From positions 1 to 38,479 of IMG/VR virus record IMGVR_UViG_3300022178_004177: a stretch of 38,479 nt of DNA; one strand, 5' to 3'. The DNA comes from a virus. Taxonomy: Duplodnaviria > Caudoviricetes. Each line of letters starts with the position of its first letter. Position 1 is the first letter of the stretch. Below are positions 1 to 38,183 of this stretch, piece after piece. The notes under the pieces are model-generated. The model was not told the origin of the DNA. It worked only from the letters and a program-made list of their open reading frames with translations, and did not search any database. The position numbers and the translations under genes are program-made.

Positions 1-2
1 CT

Positions 3-3000
3 TCAATTATAAACTCCAATAATCGTCTTGAAACCGTACATAAATTAGAGCAGGTAAAAAGAGAACACCATGACCGGCAAATTATAGAGCAAGCGGGAAT
101 AGGGACTGGTTTAGCAGCAGGTCTTGGAGCTGGTCTTTTAGATCCGATTAATTACATTGCTCTAGGTGGGGCCATGAGAACCGCCAAGGCTGTTGGGTTA
201 GCCACGAGGCCACTGGCCGTCGGAGCGGTCGGAGCGACTGAGAACGTCATTGGCTTATCCGTAGCGGAGCCTTTTCTTAGAGCCGCACAAATGACTCGTA
301 CAGACGAAGAGTTTCATCGTGACCTCTTTGGTGGCGTGGCACTTGGAGGGCTATTTGGGGGCATTTCTGGTTCTATAAGTTCGGCATCTACTGCGACAAG
401 CCGAGCATTATTAGGAACAGACAATCCAGAGAGTTTAATTTCTCAACAGGGAATAAACGATTATTTGCAAAACAATCCTGAACAAGCTCAGAGATTAGAT
501 GATCTTCTCGACGGAGATCAAGGTTTTGCTGTTTATGGAGAAACAAGAGAAGAACTTTCTGGAATTTTATTAGAAGCAACTAGGGGCACAAATCCTGAGT
601 TAGCTAGAATTTTAGGCCAAGATACTTTCTTTGGAAAAATGCTAGTAAAATTCTTATTCTTGAATCCGGCAATGAATCTTTCTAGGTCTAATTCGCAGTT
701 TGCCAGGGCGGCCTTGGATATCATGACCAAGCCAGCAATTCTAAGAGAGAATACTTTAGATACGCAGAGCATTGAAGCGGTTTTAGGAGTCGCTGAAGTA
801 GCCGCTGGCCGTATAGAAGTACGCATGAATACGGAAATATCAAGTTATATAGCTAATGGTGGCAGACTTTCAAAACAAGAAGTCCTAGATTTAGCAGGAA
901 GAGCGGCAGTAAGGACTGATATTGTAGATCCACAAAATGCTGCTAACGATTTCGTCATTGACGAGATCACAGGTGAACTAATAGAAGTCAATCCTTTTGC
1001 TGGTTTAGGCCAAGCTGAGATTGATGTTATTCAAAAAGTAGCGGGAATTAATCGTCAATTTTCTGACGCAATGAGAAAGACAGCCGTTACAGCAGGAGCA
1101 TTTACAGAACAACAAATCGATGCTGTATTTGCCAGCAACTATTTGCAGAGAAGATATAAAAGAGACAAAATTGATATGCACCCTGAACAGTTACGTGCAG
1201 TATTGATAAAGGCTTTTGAACATAAGAGATTGACAGAATTACCTGGATTGATAAGTGAAAGAGACGCAGTTAAACAACAATTAGACGATATCAATAACCG
1301 TTTGCGTAATATGGCTCCAGATAATCCTGACCGAAGAGCGTTGGAATATGATAGTGAGCAATTAAATGATAGTTTAAATCAATACCAAAGAAGTATTGAT
1401 GATCTTGGAAATCCTGATAACTGGGAAAATTTAGCAAATGCTGTTGAACTTCGTTTGAGAGATCAAATAGAAGATGACAGCGGCGGCCAAGTCAGAAGCA
1501 CTAACAGTTTAAATAATCGTGTATTGGATATTGAAGACCGTTTCCTGTCTCCTTTTATAGAACATAATGTTTCCACTCTCCAAAAACAACAGGTTCGAGT
1601 TCTTCTGCCTCAGCTAATGGCTGCGAATGCAATGGGGAATCACATGGACGGATTTCGTCTTAGCCCTGCATTGCAGACTAGATATACAAATGTAGTAAAC
1701 AGACTTGAGGAAATGAACACAAATCCTGATCGTTTTGGTTTTGAAGAGATCAATGAAACTAGGCTAGAATTAGAAGAAATCCTTGACGATGCGTCTCACT
1801 TGGAATTGCAATCTAACTTACGAGTCAATCTAGATTTAGAAAGATTAGGCCACACGAGTCAGCAGGATTTGCAAGAAACGCTAAACAGTTTAGTTACAAA
1901 TCTTAAAGAAGCTAGAAAAGGCTACCGAAGAACCCAACTGGAAATTAGAAATATATCTGAAAAGTTACGACTCGCAAGAGCTACTAATTTAGGCAGATCA
2001 TTAATTCAAGATCTTGAAAATCAACTTACAGAGTTAAACGCTAACGCTCTTGAGTTTAAAAACACGATGGGTAACCAAAGAACTCAAATAAATAAGTACG
2101 CAGACAATGCAGTTGTAAGCGGAACAAACGAATTAAATATTGATTTTAATACTAGCAAGTTTGGTTTAAACGAGATCAATTTTGAAGGGGCTGTAACTCC
2201 CGCTCAAATGTTGCAGAGACTTATTGTTACTAACAAATCTAGAGTATTAGCCTCTGTAGCCAACTCTCGCCGTAAATCATATATGGTCAACAACAACTCC
2301 CAACAACTTCAAGTTCAATTGCAACTAGACTTCCAGAGAATGCAACGAGATATTGACGCGGATTCTAGTTTGTCGTTTAAAAGAAAGACTAGAGAAAAAG
2401 AAAAGTTACGCAAAAAAATGGATCGAGATTTACAGGACTTAAAGGTTGTTTTTGACAGGTTACGCGGAAGAGATACTCCTGGAGATGCTTTGGGAAGAAT
2501 CGGAAAAACTGTTAGGGATTTAAACTACTCTCGATTGGGTGGTGGATTTTTAATTTCCAGTATGCCCGACGCACTGGTTGGCGTTGCTCAAGTTGGATTA
2601 CCTAATTATTTGCGAGCCTTTGCAACGCGATTAAATCCATTTATTAGTAAAGCTGAGTATCGCAGGGATATAGCAGAATATTTATATGCAAATGAAGCAG
2701 TCCTTGGCGGAGATCGTAACAGAAGAATTCATGGACTCGACCCGCTTGACCCTGACCGGCAAAATATTGTCGAGCGAGCTGGAGAAAGCGTTGCTAATAC
2801 AATGGGTCGATGGTTAGGGCTAAATAGTTGGAATGGCATGATGAAAGAAATTAATGCTATTGCTATTCAAAACAAAACGATGTCGATTGCGAAAAAGATT
2901 CAGCAGGGAAAAAGACTTTCTAGAAGCGACAAAGGTTTTATTCAGGGGACTGGTATCGGAGAAGACCAGTTTCGTCGGTGGGCTTCATACCAAGATTCGT

Positions 3001-3869
3001 TTGGTCAAAACAAAAAAACATTTATAGGCGGAGACTTTTATCATCCTCAAACTGGGATGTGGAACACGCTTCCTGGAGTTGACGAAAACTTAGTTCGTCA
3101 AGATCGCTTGGCTTTTGAGCGGTTTATTTTTCAGAGAGTAAATCAAACAATTGTTACTCCAGGTGCCGCTGATTTGCCGAGATGGATGACAAATACCGAA
3201 CTAGGAAGAATTGCAGGCCAGTTTGGTTCTTTCTCTATGGCTGCAACTTCTCAAGCAACAATTCCTATGATTCAGAAAATGGCTATGGGAGATATGAACC
3301 AAGTTATTATGTTTATTGGAACAGCCTCCCTTGGAGCCGCATCGTACTGGATACGACAAGCATTGAATGGGAAAGATCCTTTTGAAGACGAAGAAAAAAG
3401 AGATAGAAAAGGCCGACTCATTGCACGAGTGCCTTGGTGGAAAAAGTCTATTGTTGAAGGTATAGACCGAGGAGGTACGTTAGGTTGGCTTTCTCAAGGA
3501 AATGCAATGTCGGAAAGACTGACAGGATTCGGAGTTTCAACTCTGACAGGCACAGGAGCTTTAACTCGTATGCAAGCAAGGTCGAGAGTCGATACTTTAT
3601 TCGGGCCTACCGCCGGCCTAATAAACGATTTTACAGGAGTAATCGGAGCGGGTTTCGATAAAGCGATTAAAGGTGAGGATTTTAGTGAAGGCGATTACAA
3701 CGCAAGCCGTCGTATGATTCCGTTGCAAAATTTATTTCAACTTAGACTAGGACTTGACGTACTACCAAGTTTGAACCGGCAACGGCAGAACCCATTAAAG
3801 TATAGAAATTATCAAGACGCATATTTACCAGCCCAGCAAAAGTTAAGAAATTTAATGCAAGGACTCTAA
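3..3869 (+). CDS. Large internal virion / DNA-ejection protein (T7 gp16 / BPP-1 Bbp10-like class), 5'-truncated by the window edge
   Basis: The frame of ORF 174..3869 is open back to nt 3 (SIINSNNRLE...GLAAGLGAGLLDPINYIALGGAM). It has a Gly/Ala-rich hydrophobic N-region with a DPxNYI motif and a long helical body. C-terminal motifs RDLNYSRLGGGFLISSMPD and VNQTIVTPGAADLPRWM...GQFGSF resemble podovirus internal virion proteins. Confidence 0.7.
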   Translation, partial: SIINSNNRLETVHKLEQVKREHHDRQIIEQAGIGTGLAAGLGAGLLDPINYIALGGAMRTAKAVGLATRPLAVGAVGATENVIGLSVAEPFLRAAQMTRTDEEFHRDLFGGVALGGLFGGISGSISSASTATSRALLGTDNPESLISQQGINDYLQNNPEQAQRLDDLLDGDQGFAVYGETREELSGILLEATRGTNPELARILGQDTFFGKMLVKFLFLNPAMNLSRSNSQFARAALDIMTKPAILRENTLDTQSIEAVLGVAEVAAGRIEVRMNTEISSYIANGGRLSKQEVLDLAGRAAVRTDIVDPQNAANDFVIDEITGELIEVNPFAGLGQAEIDVIQKVAGINRQFSDAMRKTAVTAGAFTEQQIDAVFASNYLQRRYKRDKIDMHPEQLRAVLIKAFEHKRLTELPGLISERDAVKQQLDDINNRLRNMAPDNPDRRALEYDSEQLNDSLNQYQRSIDDLGNPDNWENLANAVELRLRDQIEDDSGGQVRSTNSLNNRVLDIEDRFLSPFIEHNVSTLQKQQVRVLLPQLMAANAMGNHMDGFRLSPALQTRYTNVVNRLEEMNTNPDRFGFEEINETRLELEEILDDASHLELQSNLRVNLDLERLGHTSQQDLQETLNSLVTNLKEARKGYRRTQLEIRNISEKLRLARATNLGRSLIQDLENQLTELNANALEFKNTMGNQRTQINKYADNAVVSGTNELNIDFNTSKFGLNEINFEGAVTPAQMLQRLIVTNKSRVLASVANSRRKSYMVNNNSQQLQVQLQLDFQRMQRDIDADSSLSFKRKTREKEKLRKKMDRDLQDLKVVFDRLRGRDTPGDALGRIGKTVRDLNYSRLGGGFLISSMPDALVGVAQVGLPNYLRAFATRLNPFISKAEYRRDIAEYLYANEAVLGGDRNRRIHGLDPLDPDRQNIVERAGESVANTMGRWLGLNSWNGMMKEINAIAIQNKTMSIAKKIQQGKRLSRSDKGFIQGTGIGEDQFRRWASYQDSFGQNKKTFIGGDFYHPQTGMWNTLPGVDENLVRQDRLAFERFIFQRVNQTIVTPGAADLPRWMTNTELGRIAGQFGSFSMAATSQATIPMIQKMAMGDMNQVIMFIGTASLGAASYWIRQALNGKDPFEDEEKRDRKGRLIARVPWWKKSIVEGIDRGGTLGWLSQGNAMSERLTGFGVSTLTGTGALTRMQARSRVDTLFGPTAGLINDFTGVIGAGFDKAIKGEDFSEGDYNASRRMIPLQNLFQLRLGLDVLPSLNRQRQNPLKYRNYQDAYLPAQQKLRNLMQGL

Positions 3870-3873: not shown

Positions 3874-4164
3874 ATGGAAAACATTGAATGGACTGGCGGT
3901 CTTGGTGCGATTGCCCTGACAATACTCATACTTAGGGAAGTTTTTTCTTTCTTGTCTAAATCAAAAAATGGCAATGGTCATGTGGCAATGGATACAAACA
4001 AAACAATGGCTCGGTTAGAAACCGAAATTAGAAAAGTAAGTCATGCAATTAACAATCTGAATCAAGTTTTAACTTTGATGCATCATGAGTTAAAAGAAAA
4101 CAGAAAAGAATCTGAGGAAATTTTAAATGAAGTCAGAAGACTTCGAGAGGAAATTAGAAAATGA
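3874..4164 (+). CDS. N-terminal TM + coiled-coil membrane protein (i-spanin- or BhlA-type holin-like); homolog of 31725..31991
   Basis: Hydrophobic GGLGAIALTILILREVFSFL followed by a heptad-like charged helix; SD-like AAGGA upstream; ATGA overlap with the downstream lipoprotein. Confidence 0.55.
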   Translation: MENIEWTGGLGAIALTILILREVFSFLSKSKNGNGHVAMDTNKTMARLETEIRKVSHAINNLNQVLTLMHHELKENRKESEEILNEVRRLREEIRK

Positions 4165-4397
4165 AATATTTAGTTCTGATAATGTTACTGCTAGTCGGCT
4201 GCGAAACTGTAACTGACATTTCTGATACTCTTTTTTACAGAGGAGAGGACGCGTCTAGCACAGCTGAAGACGCTCTTTCGGTTGCAAGACCTCTGATACC
4301 TTCTCCCTGGAGCGAAGCCCTTGTAGCAACAGTTACGGCTGTAGCAACATGGTGGACTGCAAAAAGAAAATTGTTATCCCAACCTACTGCAAAATAA
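4161..4397 (+). CDS. Lipoprotein, candidate spanin component
   Basis: Signal peptide II with lipobox (MKYLVLIMLL-LVGC); hydrophobic C-terminal segment ALVATVTAVATWW followed by KRK; SD GAGG upstream. Confidence 0.6.
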   Translation: MKYLVLIMLLLVGCETVTDISDTLFYRGEDASSTAEDALSVARPLIPSPWSEALVATVTAVATWWTAKRKLLSQPTAK

Positions 4398-4439: not shown

Positions 4440-4856
4440 ATGAAATCCGTAAAAGTTTTTGATAATAAAACGTCTACTGGGGCTTCAGATTCCGTAGATG
4501 TTTTTATTGCTGACACGGGAATTAGTCCACCAAAAGCCCCACCATATGTAATGGTCAATGTTGTAAATGCAGGAAGTAATAATGCAAGTATTAACGTAGA
4601 GTGGTCTCCTGATAACTTAACTTGGTTTTCAGGAACTACGTATACCGGACCTGTTACTACTACAACTGGCCAAGTACGTCTAGACAGGATTGAAAATGTA
4701 GCTTCAGCATCGTCACCAGGTGTTGTAGCAAGTGACGGTGATTTAGATACGGGCAATTCTGCAATGCAGTTTGCTGTAAAAGGTCGTTATTGCCGTCTCA
4801 ATATAGTTCTAAAAGGAACTACAATTGATATAGATGCTTGGATTAGTGCTGGTTAA
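4440..4856 (+). CDS. Beta-rich putative virion (spike/decoration-like) protein
   Basis: Strong SD TAAGGAG. Ser/Thr/Val-rich with INVEWSPDNLTWF...GRYCRL, a pattern seen in small jelly-roll phage proteins. Confidence 0.45.
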   Translation: MKSVKVFDNKTSTGASDSVDVFIADTGISPPKAPPYVMVNVVNAGSNNASINVEWSPDNLTWFSGTTYTGPVTTTTGQVRLDRIENVASASSPGVVASDGDLDTGNSAMQFAVKGRYCRLNIVLKGTTIDIDAWISAG

Positions 4857-4894
4857 AAATCTTAGATCCAAAAATACCCACTAATTTAAAGCGT

Positions 4895-5248
4895 TTGGTT
4901 GTAGTCGTTTGGAGAGATATTACAGCCAGAGCAGATTGGGTAGGTAGCATCGAGGAAGTCGTTGAGGAGATTCAGCCAATTCTGTGCGTAACAGTAGGCT
5001 GGATTCTCCTTGACAACAAAGACACGCTAATAGTTGCGGATTCTGCAACAAAAGATAAAACTTTTGGAGGCACGACGGCAATTCCTAAAGGCGTAGTCGT
5101 AAGCATTGAAGATTTGAGAAAAGAAAGTGCAGCAGACATTCTCAAAAAAGCAACATTGAGAGAGTCTGTGAAAAAAAGAAAGGTGAAAAATGAGACCAAG
5201 AGAATTCTCACTGAGAGAGATGACGAGAGCAATTCGAGTCCTAAGTGA
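4895..5248 (+). CDS. Conserved phage hypothetical protein (VxWxD...VGW...IP pattern)
   Basis: VVVVWRDI...CVTVGWIL...GGTTAIPKGVV is a pattern I recall from small phage proteins. The start is uncertain (TTG, no clear SD). Confidence 0.55.
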   Translation: MVVVVWRDITARADWVGSIEEVVEEIQPILCVTVGWILLDNKDTLIVADSATKDKTFGGTTAIPKGVVVSIEDLRKESAADILKKATLRESVKKRKVKNETKRILTERDDESNSSPK

Positions 5249-5483
5249 AACGGCAAAGAAGAAACTGATATTAAGCGAGAGGCCGACGCGTTTCTATTTT
5301 CTAGAAGAAGACGGAAGTCAGACCCTGATTGGTCGTCACACGAGCGAAGCTTATAATAAAGTTCGAGCCGAAGCCGCCGAGACTATAGATGACCCTAAAG
5401 ATAAAAAGAAGTTTTTTGAAATCTCTTATCGTATAAGAAAAAATGCTCAATTCGGAGTAACCGGAATGGCCCAAGTCTTTTAG
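5190..5483 (+). CDS. Hypothetical protein
   Basis: 97-aa ORF, ATG preceded by AAGGTGA, fits the operon packing. Confidence 0.55.
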   Translation: MRPREFSLREMTRAIRVLSETAKKKLILSERPTRFYFLEEDGSQTLIGRHTSEAYNKVRAEAAETIDDPKDKKKFFEISYRIRKNAQFGVTGMAQVF

Positions 5484-5491: not shown

Positions 5492-5602
5492 ATGAAAACT
5501 ACGATAGAAAATTTCTGGAACAAGATAGAGTTTATCTTGCTAGTAATTAGTGGCCTGTTTTTTATCAGCGTTATTTTGTATCTAGGGGGGTGCTTTGAAT
5601 GA
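5492..5602 (+). CDS. Small single-TM protein (36 aa; not in the ORF track)
   Basis: Translated by hand: MKTTIENFWNKIEFILLVISGLFFISVILYLGGCFE*. SD GGGGG upstream; its TGA overlaps the ATG at 5599. Confidence 0.55.
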   Translation: MKTTIENFWNKIEFILLVISGLFFISVILYLGGCFE

Positions 5603-6092
5603 GTTGGCATTGTTCGCTGGAGTTGGTGGAGGCATTCTCGCAAGCAAAAGTCTGGGTCACCGGGTCGTGTGTGCGGTGGAAAAAGATCCGTATTGCAGAG
5701 AGATCCTTATGCGGAGGCAAGAAGACAACTGCCTCCCAGTCTTCCCAATCTGGGACGACGTTGACAGCTTCGACGGGTACTCCTGGCATGGCGTTGTCGA
5801 TGTCATTTCTGCTGGATTTCCATGCCAAGGATTCTCCATTGCAGGAAAGCAAAAAGGAGCAGACGACCCCAGAAATAAATGGCCAGCGACTGCCAGAATC
5901 ATCGGAGAAGTACGCCCAAGCAGAGTTATTCTCGAAAACGTTCCAGGAATCAGAAAGTACGTCCGAGTCGTGGCCGGAGACCTTACCGATCTGGGGTACG
6001 ATTGTAAGTGGGGAGTTATTTCCGCTAGAGAAGCCGGAGCTAGACATCTCCGCAAACGATGGTGGTGCGTGGCCCACCCCACAAGCCCGTGA
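5595..6092 (+). CDS. C5 DNA cytosine methyltransferase, N-terminal (catalytic) part, motifs I-VIII
   Basis: LFAGVGG (motif I), AVEKD (II), AGFPCQGFS (IV, catalytic PC), ILENV (VI), GARHLRKRW (VIII). It stops before motifs IX-X. Confidence 0.9.
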   Translation: MNELALFAGVGGGILASKSLGHRVVCAVEKDPYCREILMRRQEDNCLPVFPIWDDVDSFDGYSWHGVVDVISAGFPCQGFSIAGKQKGADDPRNKWPATARIIGEVRPSRVILENVPGIRKYVRVVAGDLTDLGYDCKWGVISAREAGARHLRKRWWCVAHPTSP

Positions 6093-6570
6093 TTGGAAAA
6101 ACGGGCATGGTCCAAGTTATATCAATAAGGAGAGAAGCAACAGCCTAAACGATGCTGTGGATTATATCGAGAAAAAATGGCCTACTCCTTGTGTGAGTGA
6201 CTATAAAGGCGGAACCAGTGTTCCTAGAAAAGATACTGGCAAGGTTAGGACTGATCGACTCGACCACTGCTTAGAGCCTTATGCAAAAGGTCGATTAAAT
6301 CCTGACTGGGTGGAATGGCTGATGGGCTGGCCGATTGGCTGGACTTCGTTGGACTTTATGAAAATCGACATGAAGCGATGGTGGAACTATTCAATGATTA
6401 CAGAACCTGCCAAGTACTGGGAAGAAGATCCTGCTGACATTCCTGTGGGTGAGAAGTACCACACTCCGAGATTGACCTCGAAAAAAGAATACCGAGTAGA
6501 CCGATTAAAATGCTGCGGGAATGGTCAAGTCCCACAGCAGGTTATTTTAGCGCTGAAAATGTTACCTTGA
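5599..6570 (+). CDS. C5 methyltransferase C-terminal part in the +1 frame (WPTP repeats, motifs IX-X)
   Basis: WPTPQARDWK and WPTPCVSDYK repeats, RLNPDWVEWLMGWP (motif IX-like), RVDRLKCCGNGQVP (motif X). ATG is coupled to the upstream stop. Confidence 0.75.
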   Translation: MSWHCSLELVEAFSQAKVWVTGSCVRWKKIRIAERSLCGGKKTTASQSSQSGTTLTASTGTPGMALSMSFLLDFHAKDSPLQESKKEQTTPEINGQRLPESSEKYAQAELFSKTFQESESTSESWPETLPIWGTIVSGELFPLEKPELDISANDGGAWPTPQARDWKNGHGPSYINKERSNSLNDAVDYIEKKWPTPCVSDYKGGTSVPRKDTGKVRTDRLDHCLEPYAKGRLNPDWVEWLMGWPIGWTSLDFMKIDMKRWWNYSMITEPAKYWEEDPADIPVGEKYHTPRLTSKKEYRVDRLKCCGNGQVPQQVILALKMLP

Positions 6571-9500
6571 CGTTTGCTCTGCCAGTCCTTCAAGCGCACT
6601 GACTGCCTGGTTAAGTTCCAACTGCTGGTACGGTTGACGTTCGGTCAGGTCGAGTATTCTCTGCGCTGCGACGAAGTCTCCTTCATTTAACGCTTTCCGA
6701 ATTTTCTCTTGGTTAAAGTTTGATACACTTTCTAAGTGTTGCATTCTTCGACTTAGATCTATACTCGTAAGTCTGAGACCTGTGAAGAAAGGAACTAAGC
6801 TTTGGAAGAACGTCGAATCCTCGTCGCCGGCTATGCTGACCACCGTGCGGTAGAGTCTGGAGAAGTGCAGCTGATTCAAAAGGTGGTATCGGTGTCCGTT
6901 AACTCTGTAAAGAACTCGAGTGTCGGCACCACTGCCGATCCTGACTTTTCTCATGTCGAGGTAATCCCGGATCACCGGCCAGTCAAGAATAGCGCCTCGG
7001 ATAGTCTGGTCTTGGGAGATTTTGCTGTCGAAGTAGAGGTTTTTTCCAATATACAACTCAACGGGAATCTTCAGCATAGGATTCAATCTTGCGAAAACCT
7101 CATCGAAGAGAATATCAGGCGTACTCTGGCCCCTCCAGGTGGCGAGATCTCCGAGGAATCCCAGTTCCTCAGTAGCCAAGAGGTTGCGCCCTGTCCATAT
7201 CTGCAGCTGACCGTTATTGATCTGTGGCCCGAATCTCCATTGTTCTCGAACGTATGAAGGAAGCAGTGTGTCGATAGGGTCTGTGCGCTTTTGACTAAAC
7301 AGGTTCTGCGTTTTTCCCATTAAAGAAATCATGCCGGGTCGCTTGAACATGAGTCCGAGCTGCAGCGGCACGTTAAACCTGGAGAAAGTATAGAACGGGA
7401 AAAGCCTGCGCATGACGTTGCGCTCGAACGGTGAAAGACCGTTGGCATAATCAAACAAAAACTTTTGTGCGTATGCCATGGCGTCAGTGGCGCCCATGCC
7501 TTCTTCCATGTTTTTGAGCCAAATACTTAACCGGAAAAAGTTATCGCCCTTACCTGCAATTGTCGATGCCGTGTCCGCCAGAGAGTTAACGCCTCGCATG
7601 ACAAAGTTATCACTGAAGGGAGACAATATCCGAGGATCGGCGGCAATCATTGCAACGGAGGTCTGGCCGATCTTGTCTGCGAAGTTGACTTGTCCACCTA
7701 GTTTTTCAAACATTTCCAGCAGTACGTCAGAACGATACTGCACCCCGTTAATAGTTACGATCTCGTCGCCGCCCTGCATGATGTTCAACATCTTGCGATT
7801 CCAAGTTGGGCTTAAAGATTTTGTGCCCAAGGCGAACATACTTCTAACGGTGGCGTCCATGATGTTGCGAGCGTGGAAAGCTGGCCACGGCAAGGTCATT
7901 GCCCATTTGAAAGAGTTCGTCAAAGCGTCAGCGCTGCGGAGCATACCTCGCAGGACTGGACCAAACTCTCGCTCTGGTGCGACAGCATCGGCGACGGCGT
8001 CAGCCATCCACTTCGGAACTGTGATCGGTTGACCAAGATCTTTGCCTGACAGGTCGATTCCGTTTTCCATGATCCGAGCCATGCCTGGGAATCGAAGGGA
8101 GACCGGGCGCTCAGGATCGTTAACGTCCATCTCGCTGCCCAGTTTTTGGTATTCTTTTAGAAGCTCCTCGTCTGATAGCTCGCCCTTTTGCCAACGTGCT
8201 TCTAGCTTTCGAGGTAACAGCCCACGATCTCTCAGGCCTAACATGACCCTATCAGCTCTCTGCATGGACGCTCGGCTGCTCCGGCCAAAGCTTGTGACGT
8301 CTGGCTTCACGTTTGTTTGCAGGTAGTTGATGACTGCACTGGCCTCAGCTGCGCTTAACTTGTCTATGTTCTGGTGACCGATGACGGCCTGCAGTAAAAG
8401 ACGCTTCTGGTCAGTGGCTTCTATGGTGTCCCCTGAGAAGAAGCTATCCAGCGCTCGAGTTAGCTGCTTCTTCTGGATTTCCAGAGCCGGCACCCCTGTC
8501 ATCGCCCCACTCGTATCTTCGACCAGCTTCAGATAATCATGGACCTGCGCAACAGCGTTTACGAGGCTTGCATTAGCGTCTGTGACGACTCCGGCAGCTT
8601 CTGCAGCGTTTGCTACTATGAGACTGCCATCTTCTCCCTGAACGAGCCTGAGACCTTCTGAGCCACCTAGTAGTGCAAACTGGTCTTCCGGCAACTCGTC
8701 GAGGAACTCCTGCACCTTTTTTAGAAACTGTTGCGAGACAGCCCCAGCTTCGTAATCGATGTCCATATCTTGAATATCAATATTCAGCAGAGTCTTTATT
8801 GGATTTCCGGCTCTTTCAAACACCAGCTCTCCAGCACTTTCCAACATAACCCGGCGACCAGTAGTGATCTCGTCAATAGCTGCAGTCTGCTCTGGTGTCA
8901 TTACTCCTCTGCCGGCACCCGCAAGTCTCATGTTATTGATCTTCTCCAACTGTTCAGCGGGAGCGTCTAGGTTGCCGAGCTGATGACGCAACAACATATA
9001 GTTCATCTCTGCCCGGCTGGGCAAATCCATCAGCACTTTATGCAAAGCCATTTGCTCAGAGCGCTGAATCTGCAGTTTGAGGTAGTTCTGCATTTGGTAG
9101 ATACCACGCCACTGGGCTTTTTGTTCTGGCGTGTAATCCAAAGTGTCTTCAACGAAAGTTCGTGTTTCCATTTGCGGAATAGCTTCGTCGAGAGCTTGCA
9201 CCTCGTTTGTCAAAACCGCTCGAGATTCGTACTGCTTTGCAGCGTCGGAACGTGCGTCAGGAATCCGTGTTTCTACAAGCTTTTTCTTTGCAGCGTCCGA
9301 TGCCGTCTTGGGTTTCCCTCGCTCAAAGTACCTATCGAGTCCCGTCAGAAGATTGTTCGCCTGATCTTGAGTAATGGGTCCATTTGCAGAAGTGCCGTTG
9401 TTCAGCTGCTTCAATCTGTGGAGCCAGTACATAGCTCTGTTCGGGGTGTTTGTTTGGCTTCCCTGCTCGACGCCGTTCATCATATTCTGTAACTGCAGCA

Positions 9501-26059: not shown

Positions 26060-26076
26060 TGCCTACTCGCTTTCGA

Positions 26077-30448: not shown

Positions 30449-30457
30449 AAAACCATC

Positions 30458-30907: not shown

Positions 30908-31095
30908 TACTTTACCTCGTATTTCTTACTCATACCGTCGGCCAGTCCTTGGGCCAAGGCGTATCCTGCACAAACAATCGCCAAGGCCCACGCCTTCGCT
31001 GTCGTGTCTACATCTTCTAGTCCACTAATACCGAGCAAGCCGGCAAGAGTGACCAGCAGCTTTTTACTGCCTAAGTTTTCAAGAATGTTTTTCAT
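30907..31095 (-). CDS. Small two-TM holin-like protein
   Basis: SKKLLVTLAGLLGI and AWALAIVCAGYALAQGLAD hydrophobic segments, basic C-terminus. Confidence 0.5.
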   Translation of the reverse strand: MKNILENLGSKKLLVTLAGLLGISGLEDVDTTAKAWALAIVCAGYALAQGLADGMSKKYEVK

Positions 31096-31100
31096 TTGTA

Positions 31101-31400
31101 TCAGAGCCTGATTCCTTTCTTTTTACCTGTTTTTTTCTTAACAGCGGCTTTTTTCTTAACAGCGGCGGCTTTTTTCCGCAAGTGTTGGTACATTGGCAGT
31201 CCCGGTGGCCCCGCCAACTCTGTACCTACTGGCGGTTTAGTCCTTCCACTATTTGCAACCTTTCGTGCTTTTGTCAACGCCAAAACCCGTTTAGTTTTTT
31301 TTGCTGTTTTTGCACTTTTCTTTGCGTGTTGCGAACGTGGCTTTGCTTTGTCCGATGGTCTTCCACGTTTACTTCCGTATGTTCCTTTTCCTGATGGCAT
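31101..31400 (-). CDS. Lys/Ala-rich basic protein (possible DNA-binding)
   Basis: MPSGKGTYGSKRGRP start; KKAAAVKKKAAVKKKTGKKKG tail. Confidence 0.6.
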   Translation of the reverse strand: MPSGKGTYGSKRGRPSDKAKPRSQHAKKSAKTAKKTKRVLALTKARKVANSGRTKPPVGTELAGPPGLPMYQHLRKKAAAVKKKAAVKKKTGKKKGIRL

Positions 31401-31747
31401 TACTGCCTCCTGATTCCTAGGCCACCCAAGGCCAATGCACTAAGAAGAGTTTCAAAAACAGTAGAGCCGTACCTGAGCCAGCCTTTGAAATCTTCTAGTT
31501 GTTCATTTTTCATGCTACGGATATGGTCCTGTTTAGACTGGATCACCTCCTGTAAGTTTGTTTGAACCCTAGTCCACTGCGCTATTTCTTCTGCGTCAGT
31601 CGCTTTAATCAGATTCAACTCAACTCTATTGAGATCTTCACGAAGTTCCTGAAGCTGCTCTTTCTCAGTTCTAATTTGTCCGGTACAACCAAGAACAACC
31701 AATAAGATTGCCAGTGTGAACCATTTACTTGCGAATCTCACGGCCAA
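31400..31747 (-). CDS. Lipoprotein with coiled coil and hydrophobic C-terminus, candidate spanin
   Basis: WFTLAILLV-VLGC lipobox; heptad helix; C-terminal TLLSALALGGLGIRR. Confidence 0.55.
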   Translation of the reverse strand: MAVRFASKWFTLAILLVVLGCTGQIRTEKEQLQELREDLNRVELNLIKATDAEEIAQWTRVQTNLQEVIQSKQDHIRSMKNEQLEDFKGWLRYGSTVFETLLSALALGGLGIRRQ

Positions 31748-31991
31748 GCTCCTTCACCTCTTCTTTTACGTCTTTTGTCATTTGCACTAAGTTACTTAAA
31801 ACCTGCGTCGAGTTTCGTATTGCGTGCGTGTTACTTCTTAACGATTCTTCCATCGCTTTCCAGCGTTCGTATTCATGAAACTTACTCCCGCTACCAGTGC
31901 CGTTTTTAGACTTTAAGTAGGAGAAAACTTCTTTTGTCACAAACAAAGCCAAAGCTGTCGCTCCTACTGCTTCACCTGACAACACATCCAT
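31725..31991 (-). CDS. N-terminal TM + coiled-coil protein (i-spanin/holin-like); homolog of 3874..4164
   Basis: AVGATALALFVTKEVFSYL then a charged helix; overlaps the downstream lipoprotein gene. Confidence 0.55.
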   Translation of the reverse strand: MDVLSGEAVGATALALFVTKEVFSYLKSKNGTGSGSKFHEYERWKAMEESLRSNTHAIRNSTQVLSNLVQMTKDVKEEVKELGREIRK

Positions 31992-32209
31992 TACAGCTCA
32001 GTCCATTTCGTTATTCCGGTCAGCTTTCCCGTAGACCAGGTTAAAGTTATCCGAGCCTGTGTGCCGTCTTCCGCCGTCTCTGTAATCGTTTGCAACTCAT
32101 CATTAGTCCAAGTCAATGATATGCCTGGATTCCAAAGCTTAGTATGTGGAGCGGCTTGCTCTACAGATTGAATTCCTCGCCCTCGTGGGTGCCGATAGTT
32201 CACTGCCAT
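31991..32209 (-). CDS. Hypothetical protein with duplicated LTW...L..IT beta motif
   Basis: SLTWTNDELQTIT / TLTWSTGKLTGIT; TAATG-coupled on both sides. Confidence 0.55.
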   Translation of the reverse strand: MAVNYRHPRGRGIQSVEQAAPHTKLWNPGISLTWTNDELQTITETAEDGTQARITLTWSTGKLTGITKWTEL

Positions 32210-32478
32210 TAGGAATTAGTTCCCATTGTCCGAACTAGGGATTTCAATTCTTGTCTTGAGTTTTCTATGAAGGGATCCAATCCCCCTTGTCCTCCGACGT
32301 TGTTCACGTCAATATCAACAACCGCACCAGATATTTCCTGGTGTGGCATATCTCCGCCGTGTAAATGCACTAAATCTACATTAAATGTAATGGTGCAAGA
32401 GACTCGACTGTTCACCATGCACTGGGCTAAGTCTTTAGGCAGTTCTTCAGCTTTAAGTTTTATTTGCATTAGTGCCAC
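32209..32478 (-). CDS. Hypothetical protein
   Basis: Fits the coupled operon; the start may be the ATG at 32469. Confidence 0.55.
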   Translation of the reverse strand: MALMQIKLKAEELPKDLAQCMVNSRVSCTITFNVDLVHLHGGDMPHQEISGAVVDIDVNNVGGQGGLDPFIENSRQELKSLVRTMGTNS

Positions 32479-32729
32479 TCCACTTTAATGGTGCCATTGC
32501 TACTATCTTCAATGTTCTTAATTACTTCACGCTCTTGAGATTTAGAACCTACGTAAGCGTTCAGTGATTCATTAAATCCGCCTTGAAAGACTGACCCCAC
32601 AGTAGGAGTCCAACGCCGGCGACTAGCGTTCTGACATTTAGGACAAGGCTCAATCGCTTGAACCTCTTCCATATTCCTGAAGACCTCGAAATCCCCATGG
32701 TGTTCACAAACGAATGGATAAACCGGCAT
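32469..32729 (-). CDS. FmdB-family zinc-ribbon protein
   Basis: MPVYPFVCEHHGDFE...PCPKC...RR matches the MPxYxYxC..C...FE...CPxC pattern, with the first pair as CxxH. Confidence 0.7.
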   Translation of the reverse strand: MPVYPFVCEHHGDFEVFRNMEEVQAIEPCPKCQNASRRRWTPTVGSVFQGGFNESLNAYVGSKSQEREVIKNIEDSSNGTIKVEWH

Positions 32730-34783
32730 TAAAATCCGCCTCTCATAAGCTCTTGAACATTTTGACCTGTGGCCCCCCCGGACCCCATTTGTTGTGGAGT
32801 TCCTCCTGCTCCACCGGCAGTTAGTCCCGCACCTCCGCTTGGATTATTTGTTGTACCTGGCGCTGGGCCTGGATTTCCTCCGGTAGCCTGTCTTTGTTGC
32901 TGTACCTGCTGCATTCCTTGAGCGGATTGCTGCTGGGCACGAAGCATAGCCCGATGAGCTTCGAGATGATTTTGTAGTCTCTCGACCGTGCTTGGACTTT
33001 GCAGTGTCTGCGGATCTTGTAACTGTTGCTCGTGCGTGAATATGTGCCACTCGTGGTCGTCTATTTCGTTGGGCTGAAGATCCAGGCCTTTCTTCAACAT
33101 GAGATACCACTCTTGACCGGGGTCCATCGGCGGTCCGCTTTCGGGGAGGAACCTGAGATCCTGCACACCGAGTTCTTGGGCCACTTTTTTTAGCTGCGGG
33201 CGGATGTCGATCAAGGGTGCCGGGCTTCCTGCCTGTGAGTACGGTGTAAGCAGTTGCAAAGTCTGACCAGCTTTCGCTAATCTTTCTTGCCTGGTCTCTG
33301 CTGCCATGTCCTCGATGGTGCAACTCCACAGGTAGTTTCCTCCGAGATCGGCCCCTGAGTATGGAACCCAGACGATATCGCCTCGATCTCCAGTTATCTG
33401 TACTACCTTCTCTTTCGAGTAGTACTGACTCATCACTGCTCTCACGTCTTCGGCTAAGCTTTCCAGTGTTGACGAGATTCTTTCCCCGATTCCTGATCGG
33501 CGAGCATTCGCTGCTCCGGCGATTCGTCCTATTTCCGATGCGGACCTTTCGCCGGCACGGCTTCCTCCCAGGTCGAACTCTGACATTCCCGATATCTCTG
33601 TCCATCGTTGTTTTATCTCCGACGTAAAAGCGTATGAGTCTGGAGAAATATTAGCGTCTGGTATGGGAACAATCGATCCACTAACAGCTCCGCCAGCTGC
33701 ATGAACTCCTACTAGTGTTCCATCTTTTGGATATACCAAAGCGTCAACTTGTTCGTCGTCAATCCTGTCCATGTCGTAAGCGTATTTTCTTTTATAAGCG
33801 CTTAAATGGTTCAGGCGACTAGCGAGCGTAAGGTTGTATTCGTCAACTAGGTTTAGCCATGGGACCATAGGACTTTGAGTCCAAAAGTTTTCATTATCGT
33901 CAGTCCCGTGGAATACGTAAAACGGATATCTCTGGACAGGTAGTCGCATGGGCTGGCTGCCCAAAAACTGCTCACAGTCAGAAGTAAACGTATAGATCCG
34001 CTTGTCCACCATATCGTGGTATTGGACTAGTCGAACAAACTTGCGCTCTGGGTCTCTGCCGTATCGATTTTGAAACTCTGAAAGAGTCATATTCGGAGGC
34101 AAGTCCCACTCGTCGGCTTCTAGGTTTCCTGTGTTCTTGTACTGCGGATCTCGCTTTACAGCTTCTAAGTCACGCACATATTCAACAGCAACCCATAGAG
34201 CATCGTGAATACTTGTTGCGCACGGATCGACCATAAAGTTTTGCGGGCGAATGTGCAGAGCATAGATTTGGCCAGGTCGAATACCATACGGTAAATCGCT
34301 ATTATCTTTTGGCCCAGACTCTGCAGAGTTTTCTGGAGTTTCAGGATTCGCTCCTCCGGTGGTTGTTGGAACCAGTGCGTTATCGTAATAACCCAACTGT
34401 ATGATTCCAACGCCGTAAAGTAGCGTATCGTGTATAGCCTTTTTAAGAGTCGCCTTGAAGTTAATCGCTTGCAACTCAGCGGTAACAGCAGCCTCTACTG
34501 TAGGAGCTTGTTCTTCAGATTCTTGAGATTGAGGGGTTGCCGTGAATACTGGGTTTCGGTAAACCAGTGACGGCATCATGCTTTCATACCAAGCCCAAGG
34601 ATAGTTTACCTGGAGACGAAAGCCTTCAGGGTCAAAGCTGGTAGGTGGGTCTGAACGATAATAAGCATAGGTGTCTTCCCATACTTGTTTATTTGTTTCA
34701 CGACGCTCTTGAGCAACGACTACATTATCTTGTAATCGCTGTAACTGTTGTGAGAGCGTCGGTCGCCCTTCGCTGTATGGCAT
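32729..34783 (-). CDS. Portal protein (P22-like)
   Basis: 684 aa after the terminase. QVNY...YRNPVF, DTLLYGVGIIQLGY, FMVDP, ISGMSEF...G...ERSASE motifs; Gln/Gly-rich tail. Confidence 0.85.
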   Translation of the reverse strand: MPYSEGRPTLSQQLQRLQDNVVVAQERRETNKQVWEDTYAYYRSDPPTSFDPEGFRLQVNYPWAWYESMMPSLVYRNPVFTATPQSQESEEQAPTVEAAVTAELQAINFKATLKKAIHDTLLYGVGIIQLGYYDNALVPTTTGGANPETPENSAESGPKDNSDLPYGIRPGQIYALHIRPQNFMVDPCATSIHDALWVAVEYVRDLEAVKRDPQYKNTGNLEADEWDLPPNMTLSEFQNRYGRDPERKFVRLVQYHDMVDKRIYTFTSDCEQFLGSQPMRLPVQRYPFYVFHGTDDNENFWTQSPMVPWLNLVDEYNLTLASRLNHLSAYKRKYAYDMDRIDDEQVDALVYPKDGTLVGVHAAGGAVSGSIVPIPDANISPDSYAFTSEIKQRWTEISGMSEFDLGGSRAGERSASEIGRIAGAANARRSGIGERISSTLESLAEDVRAVMSQYYSKEKVVQITGDRGDIVWVPYSGADLGGNYLWSCTIEDMAAETRQERLAKAGQTLQLLTPYSQAGSPAPLIDIRPQLKKVAQELGVQDLRFLPESGPPMDPGQEWYLMLKKGLDLQPNEIDDHEWHIFTHEQQLQDPQTLQSPSTVERLQNHLEAHRAMLRAQQQSAQGMQQVQQQRQATGGNPGPAPGTTNNPSGGAGLTAGGAGGTPQQMGSGGATGQNVQELMRGGF

Positions 34784-34785
34784 GA

Positions 34786-35016
34786 CTAGCCTAGGATGTT
34801 AGTGCTGCCACCGGGCAGCTTGTTGATAGAAGCACCGGAAGCTGTAGGCTTTCCTTTTGTAACACTTCCACCCATAACGATGCCGTCGTGTTTCATACAC
34901 GCATTTACGTCAACACCCTTATTTGCCGAAACAGAACCAATGACGCAACCCTTTTTAGTATTATTAGGGGGAACGTTCTCGGTGCCTTTATTACTCTTGA
35001 TCGGATGGTTTTCCAT
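34786..35016 (-). CDS. Hypothetical protein
   Basis: 76 aa; TAATG coupling; SD GAGG. Confidence 0.5.
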   Translation of the reverse strand: MENHPIKSNKGTENVPPNNTKKGCVIGSVSANKGVDVNACMKHDGIVMGGSVTKGKPTASGASINKLPGGSTNILG

Positions 35017-35240
35017 TAGTAACCTCTCGGGGCCGACTTTGTTCCATGAGCAGTAGAGCCACCACGCTGACTAGCGGTGTGATTCTTTGCAGCGATTGCT
35101 ACGGCATTTTCAATCGTGCCTGCGCCGGAACTATACAGTCTATGGGCTTCTTTTACAACATCCTCCATATTAACTTCAGGAATAAACTGATAATGGTTTC
35201 TCACGAGAAAGCGCATTCTGTCATTTGATGGTGACCCCAT
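35016..35240 (-). CDS. Hypothetical protein
   Basis: 74 aa; SD GGAGG at the end of the terminase gene. Confidence 0.55.
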   Translation of the reverse strand: MGSPSNDRMRFLVRNHYQFIPEVNMEDVVKEAHRLYSSGAGTIENAVAIAAKNHTASQRGGSTAHGTKSAPRGY

Positions 35241-35241
35241 C

Positions 35242-36822
35242 TTACCTCCAAGGTCTAGCTGAATAGCCAGGACTATTAAATCGGCGAGCAGCTTGTTGTT
35301 CTAACATAGCCAGTTCATGCTCACCTGTGCCGGCTAATCTGCGTGGATCAAAAGAAGAGCCACGACTAGGTGGGGTCGCTATTCGAGTTAACATTTCGGT
35401 AGCGTCCATAAGATCTCGATAGCTGCTTCTTGGAAACTGTGCTAGTTCTGAGATTAAATCGTCACAAGACTCGTGAATATACAGCTTTCGGCCACTTAAC
35501 AAAGGGACAAGTCCTAACACTCTATTGTTTTTTGACTTGTTTTGATGGCTTACCGGAATAACAGGAATGGTGTATCCCATATTCTCACAGGCTTCTCGGA
35601 GGTGCTTCATTAGCCACTCCTGGCCTCCTCCTGCAGCTTCAAAGCCTATCTTGGATGCTTGCCAAGTTTGAGCAGCGGCAATGATGTGCTCAATCATTTC
35701 GTCGGGTTTAACTCTTAGTCGACGAGCTTCTAATACATAGAGTTTGCCCATTTCATTCATGGCTCCGACGACCAGTCCGGTATAGTCATGACCGTCCCAG
35801 GCGGGATCTACTGCAATAAACACCTGCAACAAAGCTCGCTCGAGGAACTCTTTTTTGTCGCCTTTCCACTGTACGTCTTCCAAGAGACTGGGAGCAAACA
35901 TGGCATTTTCGCTATCGACAGGCTCGTTCATCATTTGACTAGAGAACGTCCATTCACCCATTTCCTCACGCAACTCCCCTAAAACCTTGCGGCTAAACTT
36001 TTGCGGGAAAATGACCTTGCCACTCTCAAGCGCCTTCCTAAGACGGATATCGTACAAGTCGGTTAGGTTTGTCATAATATGGTTGTACAGGTCGTTCCAA
36101 TGCCACCGTGTTCCGATAACGATAAGGGATCCTCTAATAGGATCTTCTTCAGAGGGTGGTTCTAGGAGTGCTTGTAGTTCTCTGTATTTTTGTAGTGATT
36201 TGCGGATACCTGCTTCTGTTTGGACTGTACGGTCAGAAATAGGGTCATCGAGTATCATCACGTCTGGGTGGCGACCTGCAGTAGATTCCGTAATCGACTT
36301 TGCTTCTACAGAGGGGGATCTGTTTACTTTTTCTCGGTTAATAAGTAGAGCTGATTTTGTCCATATCCGTCGCTCACTAGGAGGAGGGACTAGATTTGGC
36401 CAATATTTAGATATCTTAGGGGCTACAAGCTGGTCTTGTATTTCTCTCAAGAAAGCTTCTGCAAGGTCTTGAGTTTCGTTAAAGATCGCAAACGTCCGGT
36501 TAGGATTTTGGATCAAACGCCACAGGGTCCACCCTACGGTAATCAAGCTGCTTTTAAGATGACCTCGTGGCAGCAAAAGCAACTTACGCCGATTCGGGCC
36601 ATTATTAACAAGGTCTGAAACATCGCCGTGCAAATCGTCGTCTAGGTCTTTGTATCCCAGGACGTGCCGGCAGAAAAACAAGTGGTCGTTCTCTGCCCGT
36701 TTCCTAAACTCGTCGTCTAAAACCTGTAAATCAAGCTCTGCTAGCTCGTTCTCTAACTCCTCTGTGGGCCTTTTTTTATCTGTAGTCATTGGTAAACTGC
36801 CACTCTTCCCAAGCCTCATCAT
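35242..36822 (-). CDS. terL: Terminase large subunit
   Basis: LLLLPRGHLKSS (Walker A-like), GRHPDVMILDD (Walker B), IVIGTRW (motif III), FIAVDPA and DLMDA (RNase H-like acidic residues). Confidence 0.92.
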   Translation of the reverse strand: MMRLGKSGSLPMTTDKKRPTEELENELAELDLQVLDDEFRKRAENDHLFFCRHVLGYKDLDDDLHGDVSDLVNNGPNRRKLLLLPRGHLKSSLITVGWTLWRLIQNPNRTFAIFNETQDLAEAFLREIQDQLVAPKISKYWPNLVPPPSERRIWTKSALLINREKVNRSPSVEAKSITESTAGRHPDVMILDDPISDRTVQTEAGIRKSLQKYRELQALLEPPSEEDPIRGSLIVIGTRWHWNDLYNHIMTNLTDLYDIRLRKALESGKVIFPQKFSRKVLGELREEMGEWTFSSQMMNEPVDSENAMFAPSLLEDVQWKGDKKEFLERALLQVFIAVDPAWDGHDYTGLVVGAMNEMGKLYVLEARRLRVKPDEMIEHIIAAAQTWQASKIGFEAAGGGQEWLMKHLREACENMGYTIPVIPVSHQNKSKNNRVLGLVPLLSGRKLYIHESCDDLISELAQFPRSSYRDLMDATEMLTRIATPPSRGSSFDPRRLAGTGEHELAMLEQQAARRFNSPGYSARPWR

Positions 36823-37129
36823 GATCGTCTTCTACAATAATGGGAGTCCATTCTCCTGTATGAATATCGGCAATATTGTACTCGTAGTACTCGGTAACGT
36901 CGTCAGGAGGAATTCCTAACTCAAACATCAAAGTCTTTAAAATCGCCATTCGGCTATATACAGCCACTAAGTTCTTGTCAGTTTTCCCCCGAAACAGCGT
37001 AACACCTATTAACGCATTGTCTAAATCGTCAAATACAATCGCTTCAGGGTTGCTTTCCGCCAGTCTCTCTCGGATCTGCTGGCCTGATTTCGATGGTCCC
37101 TTGCTCTTCAATGGCTGTTCCTCGCTCAT
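36776..37129 (-). CDS. Conserved phage hypothetical protein
   Basis: FDDLDNALIGV...VAVYS...EYYEYNI...GEWTPIIV is a pattern I recall from environmental phages. Confidence 0.6.
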   Translation of the reverse strand: MSEEQPLKSKGPSKSGQQIRERLAESNPEAIVFDDLDNALIGVTLFRGKTDKNLVAVYSRMAILKTLMFELGIPPDDVTEYYEYNIADIHTGEWTPIIVEDDHDEAWEEWQFTNDYR

Positions 37130-37577
37130 CGAGTATCCTCCTTAAATATTCCCTACGTTCGACCTTGTTACTCAACTCTTGGCCCGTTGCCGACACCGCC
37201 ACGGAACTCTCAGGAGTTTTGCCTAATGTTCTCTCTAACAAAAACTTAGTTGCCTGGTATCTCACAGGATTGTCAGCCGACACCTCTCCGGTCTTCGGGT
37301 CAACCTTCTCAGCCTGCGTCAACTCTTCCATTTTTTGCATTAACGAATACAGCCGGTTCTCTTGCCAGTTAGATAACCGAGAAGCCTTCTCTATCGCCTT
37401 ATTCTTAAACTCCTCCGGGAACTGCGCCAAAACACGCTTTTCCATTTCAGAGCCGCTTTTCTCCACAGCTACCAAAAAACTTTCCCAGTCTCCAGGCCAC
37501 GCACACCACTTCAACTCTAGGTTTCCCTGAGCATTGTCCAATATGTCACCTGACCTCGGAGCCAAAAAACCACTCAT
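37044..37577 (-). CDS. Candidate terminase small subunit
   Basis: Two genes upstream of terL; helical; VRYQATKFLLERTLGK resembles TerS oligomerisation helices. Confidence 0.45.
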   Translation of the reverse strand: MSGFLAPRSGDILDNAQGNLELKWCAWPGDWESFLVAVEKSGSEMEKRVLAQFPEEFKNKAIEKASRLSNWQENRLYSLMQKMEELTQAEKVDPKTGEVSADNPVRYQATKFLLERTLGKTPESSVAVSATGQELSNKVERREYLRRILDERGTAIEEQGTIEIRPADPRETGGKQP

Positions 37578-38137
37578 GTCAACTTCCTTACAAAATCAGG
37601 TGTCACCACTTCCGGCAATACATACAACTCACTCCACCTCAACGTCTTCAAGCTCCAAGGCAATCCCCGCAGCTCTCCGTTTACCTTCACACCATACTTC
37701 GTCAACCTCTTTAACCTAGAAACCTTCGCCATCTTACAACTCGCCTGTCTCATTGCCGGCAACCTAGCCCTCGCCTTTCGACGCTTCACTATCGCCTTCA
37801 ACCAATGAATCTTCTCTCTCGAAGCCAAAGGCGCCACTGTGCAGGTTGTAAATGTTCTACCCCATGCAGTCTTATCTTTCAGCCCTTTTTTCCAACGACG
37901 ACGTGCTGCGTCCTTCAACCAACGCCTCTCTTGCAAACACGGCAACGTCTGACCAAACAACAACACCAACTGCAATCTCTTCCTATGAGGCAACTTTCTC
38001 TTATTCTCAAATAAGCTTATACACGCCTCCCTACTCCAACCTAAAAGCCTTCTAAACTCCTGTACGTCCCATCCTCGACTCCTTAACTGATACTCCCACT
38101 CCCGATATCTTCGATAATATCGCTGTTTTCTTGTCAA
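37574..38137 (-). CDS. Very basic protein with possible HTH
   Basis: VQEFRRLLGWSREACISLFENKRK is XRE-HTH-like. Likely TTG start at 38137 after GGGAG (the track gives 38170). ATGA overlap with the next gene. Confidence 0.5.
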   Translation of the reverse strand: MTRKQRYYRRYREWEYQLRSRGWDVQEFRRLLGWSREACISLFENKRKLPHRKRLQLVLLFGQTLPCLQERRWLKDAARRRWKKGLKDKTAWGRTFTTCTVAPLASREKIHWLKAIVKRRKARARLPAMRQASCKMAKVSRLKRLTKYGVKVNGELRGLPWSLKTLRWSELYVLPEVVTPDFVRKLT

Positions 38138-38183
38138 GTTAAAATCTCCCTTCGTAAGTGCCCACAACAAAACAACTTATATT

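Follow-up and report, generated by a model that had tools for sequence, protein, structure and literature searches.

Chimeric contigs are a known phenomenon in virome assemblies (PMC5610896). C5 DNA methyltransferases split into two polypeptides are likewise on record, and PMC3404938 describes two of them, M.EcoHK31I, in which only motif IX is placed in the second polypeptide and motif X in the first, and M.AquI, in which one polypeptide carries motifs I-VIII and the other IX-X. The whole stretch of DNA analysed here (38,479 nt, referred to as the window) combines the end of the virion operon of one phage with the virion operon of another, joined in a C5 methyltransferase gene shared by both, and the join was very probably made by the assembler. 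Positions 1 to approximately 5840 belong to podovirus A, and positions from approximately 6041 to 38479 belong to phage B, an unrelated podovirus. The features of the window are as follows.

3..3869, plus strand: last internal virion (ejection) protein of phage A, C-terminal 1288 of 1387 aa, open at the 5' end (phrog_342 'internal virion protein with endolysin domain', E 3e-51)
3874..4397, plus strand: 96-aa membrane protein and 78-aa lipoprotein-like ORF of phage A (from sequence; counterparts in L006)
4440..5483, plus strand: three small ORFs of phage A, 138, 117 and 97 aa (phrog_427, E 8e-4; phrog_25889, E 2e-9; no family), also in G001 and L087
5595..6092, plus strand: N-terminal ORF of the C5 DNA methyltransferase (alpha, 165 aa), carrying the phage A allele at least as far as 5838 (phrog_363, E 9e-50)
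5599..6570, plus strand: overlapping +1-frame ORF of the C5 DNA methyltransferase (beta, 323 aa), chimeric, phage B allele from 6041 (phrog_1008, E 2e-30; motif IX-like and X patterns)
5839..6040, no strand: join interval, 202 nt without a listed A/B allele difference in run X1 (contig and allele comparison)
6562..15258, minus strand: 2898-aa final gene of the phage B virion operon, putative ejection protein (C-terminal match to MW202795.1)
15272..24223, minus strand: putative smaller ejection proteins, 1249-aa tail protein and adaptor of phage B (phrog_3287, E 2e-13; Pfam SU10_adaptor, E 1e-16; the rest by position only), with the tail protein at 19168-22917 and the adaptor at 23300-24223
24475..26943, minus strand: 175-aa ORF, major capsid protein (MCP) and putative scaffold of phage B, with the MCP at 25013-26059 (phrog_9953, E 3e-58; Mx8 capsid match)
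27099..32729, minus strand: repeat-rich virion proteins and membrane cassette of phage B (sequence and family searches), the cassette comprising an 88-aa protein at 31725-31991 and a lipoprotein-like ORF at 31400-31747
32729..38170, minus strand: portal, terminase large subunit (terL), putative small subunit and small ORFs of phage B, with the portal at 32729-34783 (Pfam SU10_portal, E 6e-17; P22_portal, E 3e-11), terL at 35242-36822 (phrog_38, E 3e-90; Terminase_6C) and the putative small subunit at 37044-37577 (by position only)

The initial annotation had described a head-tail-ejection operon on the minus strand that ends in the 2898-aa ORF, and ORF and family searches located terL, portal, MCP, adaptor and a tail protein in it. 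Its reading of the plus strand as an internal-virion-type gene followed by a membrane cassette also held, the genes being the 1288-aa ORF, the 96-aa membrane protein, which is putatively holin-like, and the 78-aa lipoprotein-like ORF; the 138-aa ORF comes next. The left gene is indeed richer in AT, with a G + C content of 40.8% (GC3 0.31) versus 50.4% (GC3 0.52) for the 2898-aa gene. The motif DPxN(Y/F)IxLG, reported as the only feature common to the two large proteins, was recovered as the best BLASTP segment between them, a weak match (E 0.033, two-sequence comparison) with no other alignment beside it, and at this E-value it was dropped as a sign of a common origin of the two halves. Within the window, neither an att site nor a long repeat was found at the join, in agreement with the earlier reading.

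The left part of the window has a native continuation elsewhere. Another record, G001, differs from window positions 1-5961 by a single mismatch and ends inside the shared stretch, and the additional 19.9 kb (19,910 nt) that it holds upstream encode terL, portal (phrog_332, E 2e-87), MCP (phrog_3437, E 3e-43), two tail proteins and internal virion proteins. This second morphogenesis set substantiates the proposal that the left gene codes for an internal virion protein from a separate podovirus, and the full 1387-aa form of that protein is present in L001 and L087. Over the first 6040 nt of the window the record L087 agrees at 6034 positions, with complete identity from 4717 to 6040, and past 6040 it diverges into a 421-aa beta ORF followed by RecT/RecE genes, which represents phage A's own methyltransferase end. 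In the diverged relative L006 the genes on either side of the methyltransferase keep the phage A order (11 of 14 A proteins matched, collinear), and in runs X4 and X8 contigs branch off from the window, at 5646 and 6081, toward sequence present in L087. The G + C content is 40-43% in all four A segments and 47-50% in all five B segments. Tetranucleotide profiles of the left segment correlate at 0.50-0.56 with upstream A and at 0.21-0.44 with B segments, a weak signal given that the A early module reaches only 0.29-0.43 with other A segments.

On the right side, the stop of the 2898-aa ORF overlaps that of the methyltransferase (6562-6570), an arrangement that is native to phage B and is bridged by an X4 piece covering 5662-7109. 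Residues 2431-2748 of the 2898-aa protein align with the gene that ends the virion operon of podovirus MW202795.1 (26%, E 7e-9); among 50,697 phage records the 2898-aa gene had only one match, over 11% of its length. The upstream flank of phage B, which is distinct from that of A, appeared in X1 and X15 as contig loose ends only, and two loose-end patterns from upstream of the methyltransferase gave no matches in viral_contigs, leaving the B early region unrecovered. In searches of viral_contigs, from which very near records may be omitted, 0 of 13 candidate stretches were confirmed as relatives of the phage B capsid protein and 0 of 4 as relatives of its terminase.

The methyltransferase directly follows the virion operon in A and in B, with different flanks. 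The switch from A to B falls within 5839-6040, inside the two-frame gene carried by both phages, the allele of the window being of A type before the shared stretch and of B type after it. In X1 the shared unitig measures 235 nt (5806-6040), and the join interval would widen to its full extent were the difference at 5838 disregarded. Identity between the A and B alleles is patchy, with approximately 93% at the 5' end (X15), full identity in the middle and 81% at the 3' end. The initial annotation was right that no gene is broken, since the join sits in a gene common to both phages; it overlooked the two-frame methyltransferase at 5595-6570, and the tail-to-tail stops at 6562-6570 are not the join. 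During assembly, the identical stretch of approximately 200 nt would have collapsed into a single node of the graph, which the path would have entered from A and left into B. Since the virion operon of B and its methyltransferase lie on opposite strands, the operon running toward the methyltransferase, the two virion modules appear tail to tail with no broken gene. The near-identity of the alleles may stem from a recent transfer of the gene among phages that infect the same host.

The two halves meet seamlessly and in frame inside homologous DNA, as they would also in a real minority molecule, formed by homologous recombination of co-infecting A and B in the methyltransferase to yield a cointegrate or hybrid that the assembler then followed. 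Such an origin is improbable, even though the patchy allele identity implies past recombination at this site and the RecE/RecT-like proteins encoded by phage A could produce a hybrid in vivo. The product of a single crossover would measure at least 58.4 kb (19,910 + 38,479) and carry two packaging systems, and searches of these two parts revealed no replication gene. Moreover, three metagenome records contain a 39-mer of the shared stretch, and the A-to-B join occurs only in the window's own record, while one of the others ends there and one continues as A. The further proposition that the dual-frame methyltransferase is a crossover hot spot at which two unrelated podoviruses infecting the same host fuse to form cointegrates with two complete packaging and ejection systems, one of which was caught in the window, is improbable to the same degree.

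Seven of 24 listed runs were compared (X1, X3, X4, X8, X13, X15, and X20; X1 is the probable source run), by contig depth except for the raw reads of X20, the depths being per-contig means and not copy numbers. Logan contigs break at each branch, and the absence of a contig bridging the join is uninformative. The initial annotation had named a coverage break as grounds for refuting its reading, and such a break is present both in the contig depths of X1 and as ratio shifts across runs. In X1 the depth is 11.9 on 1-5691, 26.7-29.1 on the shared unitigs and 20.8 from 6467; phage A's own allele continuation has a depth of 10.0 and its early module 11.5 and 10.1, and the B-allele unitigs, with their separate upstream flank, have 16-22. 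That both parental paths are present in X1 with close to the whole depth of the respective phage argues against a recombinant molecule, as does the fact that assemblers normally take majority paths. Two short A-specific unitigs are lower (5.5 and 7.6 versus A's 11.9), as are long phage A downstream unitigs (by 3-15%), a shortfall compatible with a small proportion of hybrid molecules. A and B co-occur in four of four runs, as recombination would demand, at left/right depth ratios of approximately 0.6 (X1), 2.8 (X3), 1.6 (X4), and 1.4 (X8). In X15 the B-type gene has a depth of 45-49; its upstream flank is that of X1 and its downstream flank that of the window, and 24 of 30 phage A bins have zero depth. 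Phage A is patchy and of low depth in X13, and X20, the only raw-read run, yielded seven partial reads (<95%), neither phage being present.

The initial annotation had also offered a single genome with two virion systems and a nested or helper/satellite pair. Contiguous, tightly packed genes, the lack of a broken ORF and the homologous membrane proteins in both halves (96 aa in A and 88 aa in B; 36% identity over 70 aa, E 5e-7) would suit one stable genome, a helper fused to its satellite or a nested pair of prophages, readings that are nevertheless scarcely credible. Both modules would then be expected at equal depth and always together, and this is not the case: the depth ratio differs approximately five-fold between samples and flips, and the B gene occurs without A in X15. 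Apart from the 88-aa protein, no phage B protein was matched in 80 methyltransferase loci, A and L006 continue natively into early genes, and family and profile searches detected no integrase or host gene within the window. Phage A has a complete head-tail set and so is no satellite, A and B each possessing terL, portal, MCP and tail genes. The anatomy described earlier is thus real, and of the origins offered for it the assembly chimera is favored by the depth step and the native continuations of each half, which leave the others unsupported. Three signs of an assembly chimera are present here: distinct continuations (A in L087, L006, X1, X4, and X8; B in X1 and X15), a step in depth and a join in a shared stretch.

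The shared gene is a predicted two-polypeptide C5 methyltransferase. Beta is a +1-frame ORF that begins 4 nt after alpha and overlaps all of it, an arrangement that differs from M.EcoHK31I and M.AquI; beta of M.EcoHK31I is read from an alternative frame. In 75 of 77 loci the +1 frame stays open for 160 codons, and the +2 frame does so in none of the 77. By family profile and pattern match only, the window split corresponds to the partition given for M.AquI, with N-terminal motifs in alpha and IX-like and X patterns in beta, and by pattern match the presence of both patterns in beta sets it apart from the partition given for M.EcoHK31I, which was found in 57 of 81 methyltransferase relatives by the same means. 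A sorting of the loci as 'single ORF' (60 of 80) was discarded as misleading, as it considered only the position of motif X. A methyltransferase search of genome_contigs indicated no host, the best identity being 61% and the matches being spread over many phyla.

A seamless, tightly packed phage contig without a broken gene may thus consist of two genomes if both carry one mobile gene, and the present record should be divided at about 5.84-6.04 kb. The biology that remains is modest, namely two unrelated aquatic podoviruses with related membrane proteins and a dual-frame methyltransferase exchanged in the recent past, and this sharing suggests a common host and the usual mosaicism of phages. 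Hybrid molecules, should they prove real, would directly display the crossover by which unrelated phages become mosaic. A literature search found no paper on this phage pair, and absence from print is not claimed.

In the phage collection searched, the capsid protein of phage A matches only HTVC010P-type Pelagibacter podoviruses and two unclassified phages (24 records, 22 of them Pelagibacter phages), with 26-28% identity in the best 15 of the 24 rows. The gene order is alike (terL, portal, MCP, two tail proteins, internal virion proteins), but phage A differs by its capsid identity below 30%, a G + C content of 42%, and RecE/RecT and methyltransferase genes beside the virion operon. Membership in the HTVC010P genus with a Pelagibacter host was rejected on the basis of the capsid identity and the host search. 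For the phage B capsid, 52 records matched, 41 of them Brucella phages, the best match being Myxococcus phage Mx8 with 29.6% identity; at this value placement in a genus of Mx8-like or SU10-P22-type podoviruses was likewise rejected, and the portal and adaptor are homologous to the SU10/P22-like families. Compared with the chimeric contigs treated in PMC5610896, the two genomes joined here are otherwise unrelated and share one gene, and their product mimics a double-virion genome.

The ORF calls bore out the initial annotation's gene map of both strands of the window, which is the entire record (38,479 nt) and carries the following features.

Features of the window
From the window start, plus strand: 1288-aa ORF, 5'-open, internal virion protein (phrog_342, E 3e-51)
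3' of the 1288-aa ORF, plus strand: 96-aa membrane protein, 78-aa lipoprotein-like ORF, then three small ORFs
5595-6570: C5 DNA methyltransferase in two overlapping frames (phrog_363, E 9e-50; phrog_1008, E 2e-30)
38170 to 6562, minus strand: virion operon of the right podovirus (ORFs and family matches)
Within the operon, minus strand: terminase large subunit (phrog_38, E 3e-90)
Within the operon, minus strand: portal (Pfam SU10_portal, E 6e-17)
Within the operon, minus strand: major capsid protein (phrog_9953, E 3e-58)
Within the operon, minus strand: adaptor (Pfam SU10_adaptor, E 1e-16)
Within the operon, minus strand: 1249-aa tail protein
Ending at 6562, minus strand: 2898-aa ORF, last of the operon

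The methyltransferase had been overlooked initially. The GC contrast noted between the two large genes was measured as 40.8% (left) vs. 50.4% (right), and the DPxN motif reported for their proteins is indeed their best alignment, but with an E-value of only 0.033. The C-terminal half of a 723-aa gene (15272-17443) adjoining the 2898-aa gene contains 8-aa repeats rich in Pro and Gln (24-nt period); this gene gave no family match.

The left part of the window (phage A, 1 to ~5840) is a phage separate from the right podovirus (phage B, from ~6041). Record G001 (25,871 nt), whose end falls at window 5961, equals the window from 1 to that point except for one mismatch; its 19.9 kb upstream of this match encode TerL, internal virion proteins, a portal-type protein (phrog_332, E 2e-87), a capsid protein (phrog_3437, E 3e-43), and two tail proteins (phrog_394, phrog_376). 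A methyltransferase 39-mer matched three metagenome records: the source of G001, the window's own record, and L087. Over window 1-6040, L087 shows six differences, with full identity over 4717-6040, and its sequence parts from that of the window at 6041. The second methyltransferase ORF (beta, window 5599..6570; the first, alpha, is 5595..6092) is longer in L087 (421 aa, with 81% identity to the window's 3' part), and RecT-like (E 9e-62) and RecE-like (E 7e-51) genes lie beyond it on the other strand. Gene order on either side of the methyltransferase is also the same in L006, a diverged relative of phage A whose internal virion protein is 45% identical, and 11 of 14 phage A proteins match it collinearly. 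These sequences indicate that the native right flank of phage A is not phage B. The six differences cluster within 16 nt (window 4701-4716) in the 138-aa gene of phage A, one form occurring in the window, G001, and sequencing run X1, the other in L087 and runs X3 and X8.

Contigs of several runs were mapped onto window 1-14000 and onto L087, the depths given being per-contig means and not copy numbers. In X1, the probable source run, a single unitig covers window 1-5691 at a depth of 11.9, a tangle of short unitigs follows (5662-6496; shared ones at 26.7 and 29.1), and another single unitig starts at 6467 with a depth of 20.8; contigs of the source runs end at graph branches whatever the underlying molecules. 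The left contig of X3 (depth 16.6) ends at 6040, with right pieces near 5.9, and left and right depths were ~7.3 and 4.5 in X4 and ~7.3 and 5 in X8. The left/right ratio thus flips between samples, the right side being deeper in X1 and the left in X3, X4, and X8. On L087, the depth of 11.9 in X1 runs on into phage A's own allele at 10.0 without difference (two short unitigs in between are lower, at 5.5 and 7.6), and the early genes of phage A have depths of 11.5 and 10.1. The depth data and the complete gene set of phage A contradict a stable double-module genome or a helper-satellite pair, both considered in the initial annotation and now highly improbable.

Phage B has a methyltransferase allele and an upstream flank of its own. 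X1 contains a second allele of the 5' half at a depth of 16-22, differing from L087 at no fewer than 14 sites between window 5633 and 5838 (among the 40 of 153 differences listed), at which the window carries the base of phage A. In both X1 and X15, a contig carrying 255 or more letters of different sequence, the same in either run, joins immediately ahead of the start codon. In X15, the gene has a depth of 45-49 and continues into letters matching window 6549-6578, and phage A has zero depth in 24 of its 30 bins. One X4 piece (5662-7109) contains both the B-type allele and the end of the 2898-aa gene; phage A's contig in X4 departs from the window at 5646 into letters at L087 10167, and a contig in X8 at 6081 into letters at L087 9415 (first 30 letters compared in each). 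The stop-codon overlap at 6562-6570 is therefore native to phage B, and the window changes from A to B sequence within 5839-6040. In the X4 variant of phage A, ~1.2 kb including most of the methyltransferase is apparently absent (30 letters past the break compared), which makes the gene look dispensable. At least four distinct upstream flanks (phage A, one common to X1 and X15, and one further flank each in X1 and X8) meet a similar methyltransferase 5' end (window 5596-5598), which points to further phages with close copies in these samples.

The adjacency of A and B is very probably an artefact, as the assembly-chimera option of the initial annotation had it; depth and the separate alleles and flanks favor this. 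Among the differences listed, the window carries A alleles to the left and B alleles to the right of a ~200-nt stretch without A/B differences, and both parental paths are present in X1 at about full depth. Such a stretch exceeds usual assembly words and short reads, so that it would have collapsed into one assembly-graph node, through which the assembler may have passed from A to B. The join is consistent with what PMC5610896 says of the nature and origin of chimeric contigs. GC contents of 40-43% in all four A segments and 47-50% in all five B segments agree with a two-phage origin. A minority hybrid molecule of A and B is unlikely, but is kept as a rival because of the recombination system of phage A and an evident history of recombination between the two alleles; no read across the join was seen, and the phage was not found in the single raw-read run examined.

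Reading frames indicate that the methyltransferase family (window 5595-6570, L005-L084, and L087 8928-10197) is dual-coded. Of 77 loci (the best 80 of 560 confirmed, minus three lacking a full start or enough length), 75 have an open +1 frame across the first 160 codons and none has an open +2 frame. In this widespread phage C5 methyltransferase family, the fully overlapping +1-frame ORF begins 4 nt after the main start. By pattern matches for the IX-like and X motifs, 57 of 81 loci (window and L087 included) have motif X in alpha and the IX-like pattern in beta, five (window, L087, L006, L007, and L043) carry both in beta, and the rest were either truncated (four) or left without assignment by these patterns (15). 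In the five, motif X appears to have switched polypeptides, from alpha to beta. Both partitions are described in PMC3404938, for M.EcoHK31I and M.AquI. Short WPTP-led repeats vary in number among beta alleles (L087 9400-9950), the repeat region of A exceeding that of B by ~280 nt, with further forms in X15 and X13; this possibly represents target-recognition variation.

Comparison of 22 phage A proteins (from G001) with 28 of phage B gave one real match (a further hit, at E 0.021, was set aside): the membrane proteins of 96 aa in A and 88 aa in B share 36% identity over 70 aa (E 5e-7). Apart from the methyltransferase, this is the only clear common protein, which may hint at a shared host envelope. 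Related 88-97-aa membrane proteins lie beside a lipoprotein-like ORF in phage A (window 3874-4164), phage B (31725-31991, between the portal and capsid genes), and L006 (4502-4795). Both phages also encode long Thr/Ala/Val-rich repeat proteins, with a 23-aa period in B (window 27099-29339) and a C-terminal fusion to the phrog_394 tail protein in A (record L003, 9041 onward). Residues 2431-2748 of phage B's 2898-aa protein match the gene that closes the virion operon of podovirus MW202795.1, a position suggesting an ejection role. The capsid protein of phage A is closest to HTVC010P-type pelagiphages (26-28% identity), and that of phage B is closest to Myxococcus phage Mx8 (29.6% identity).
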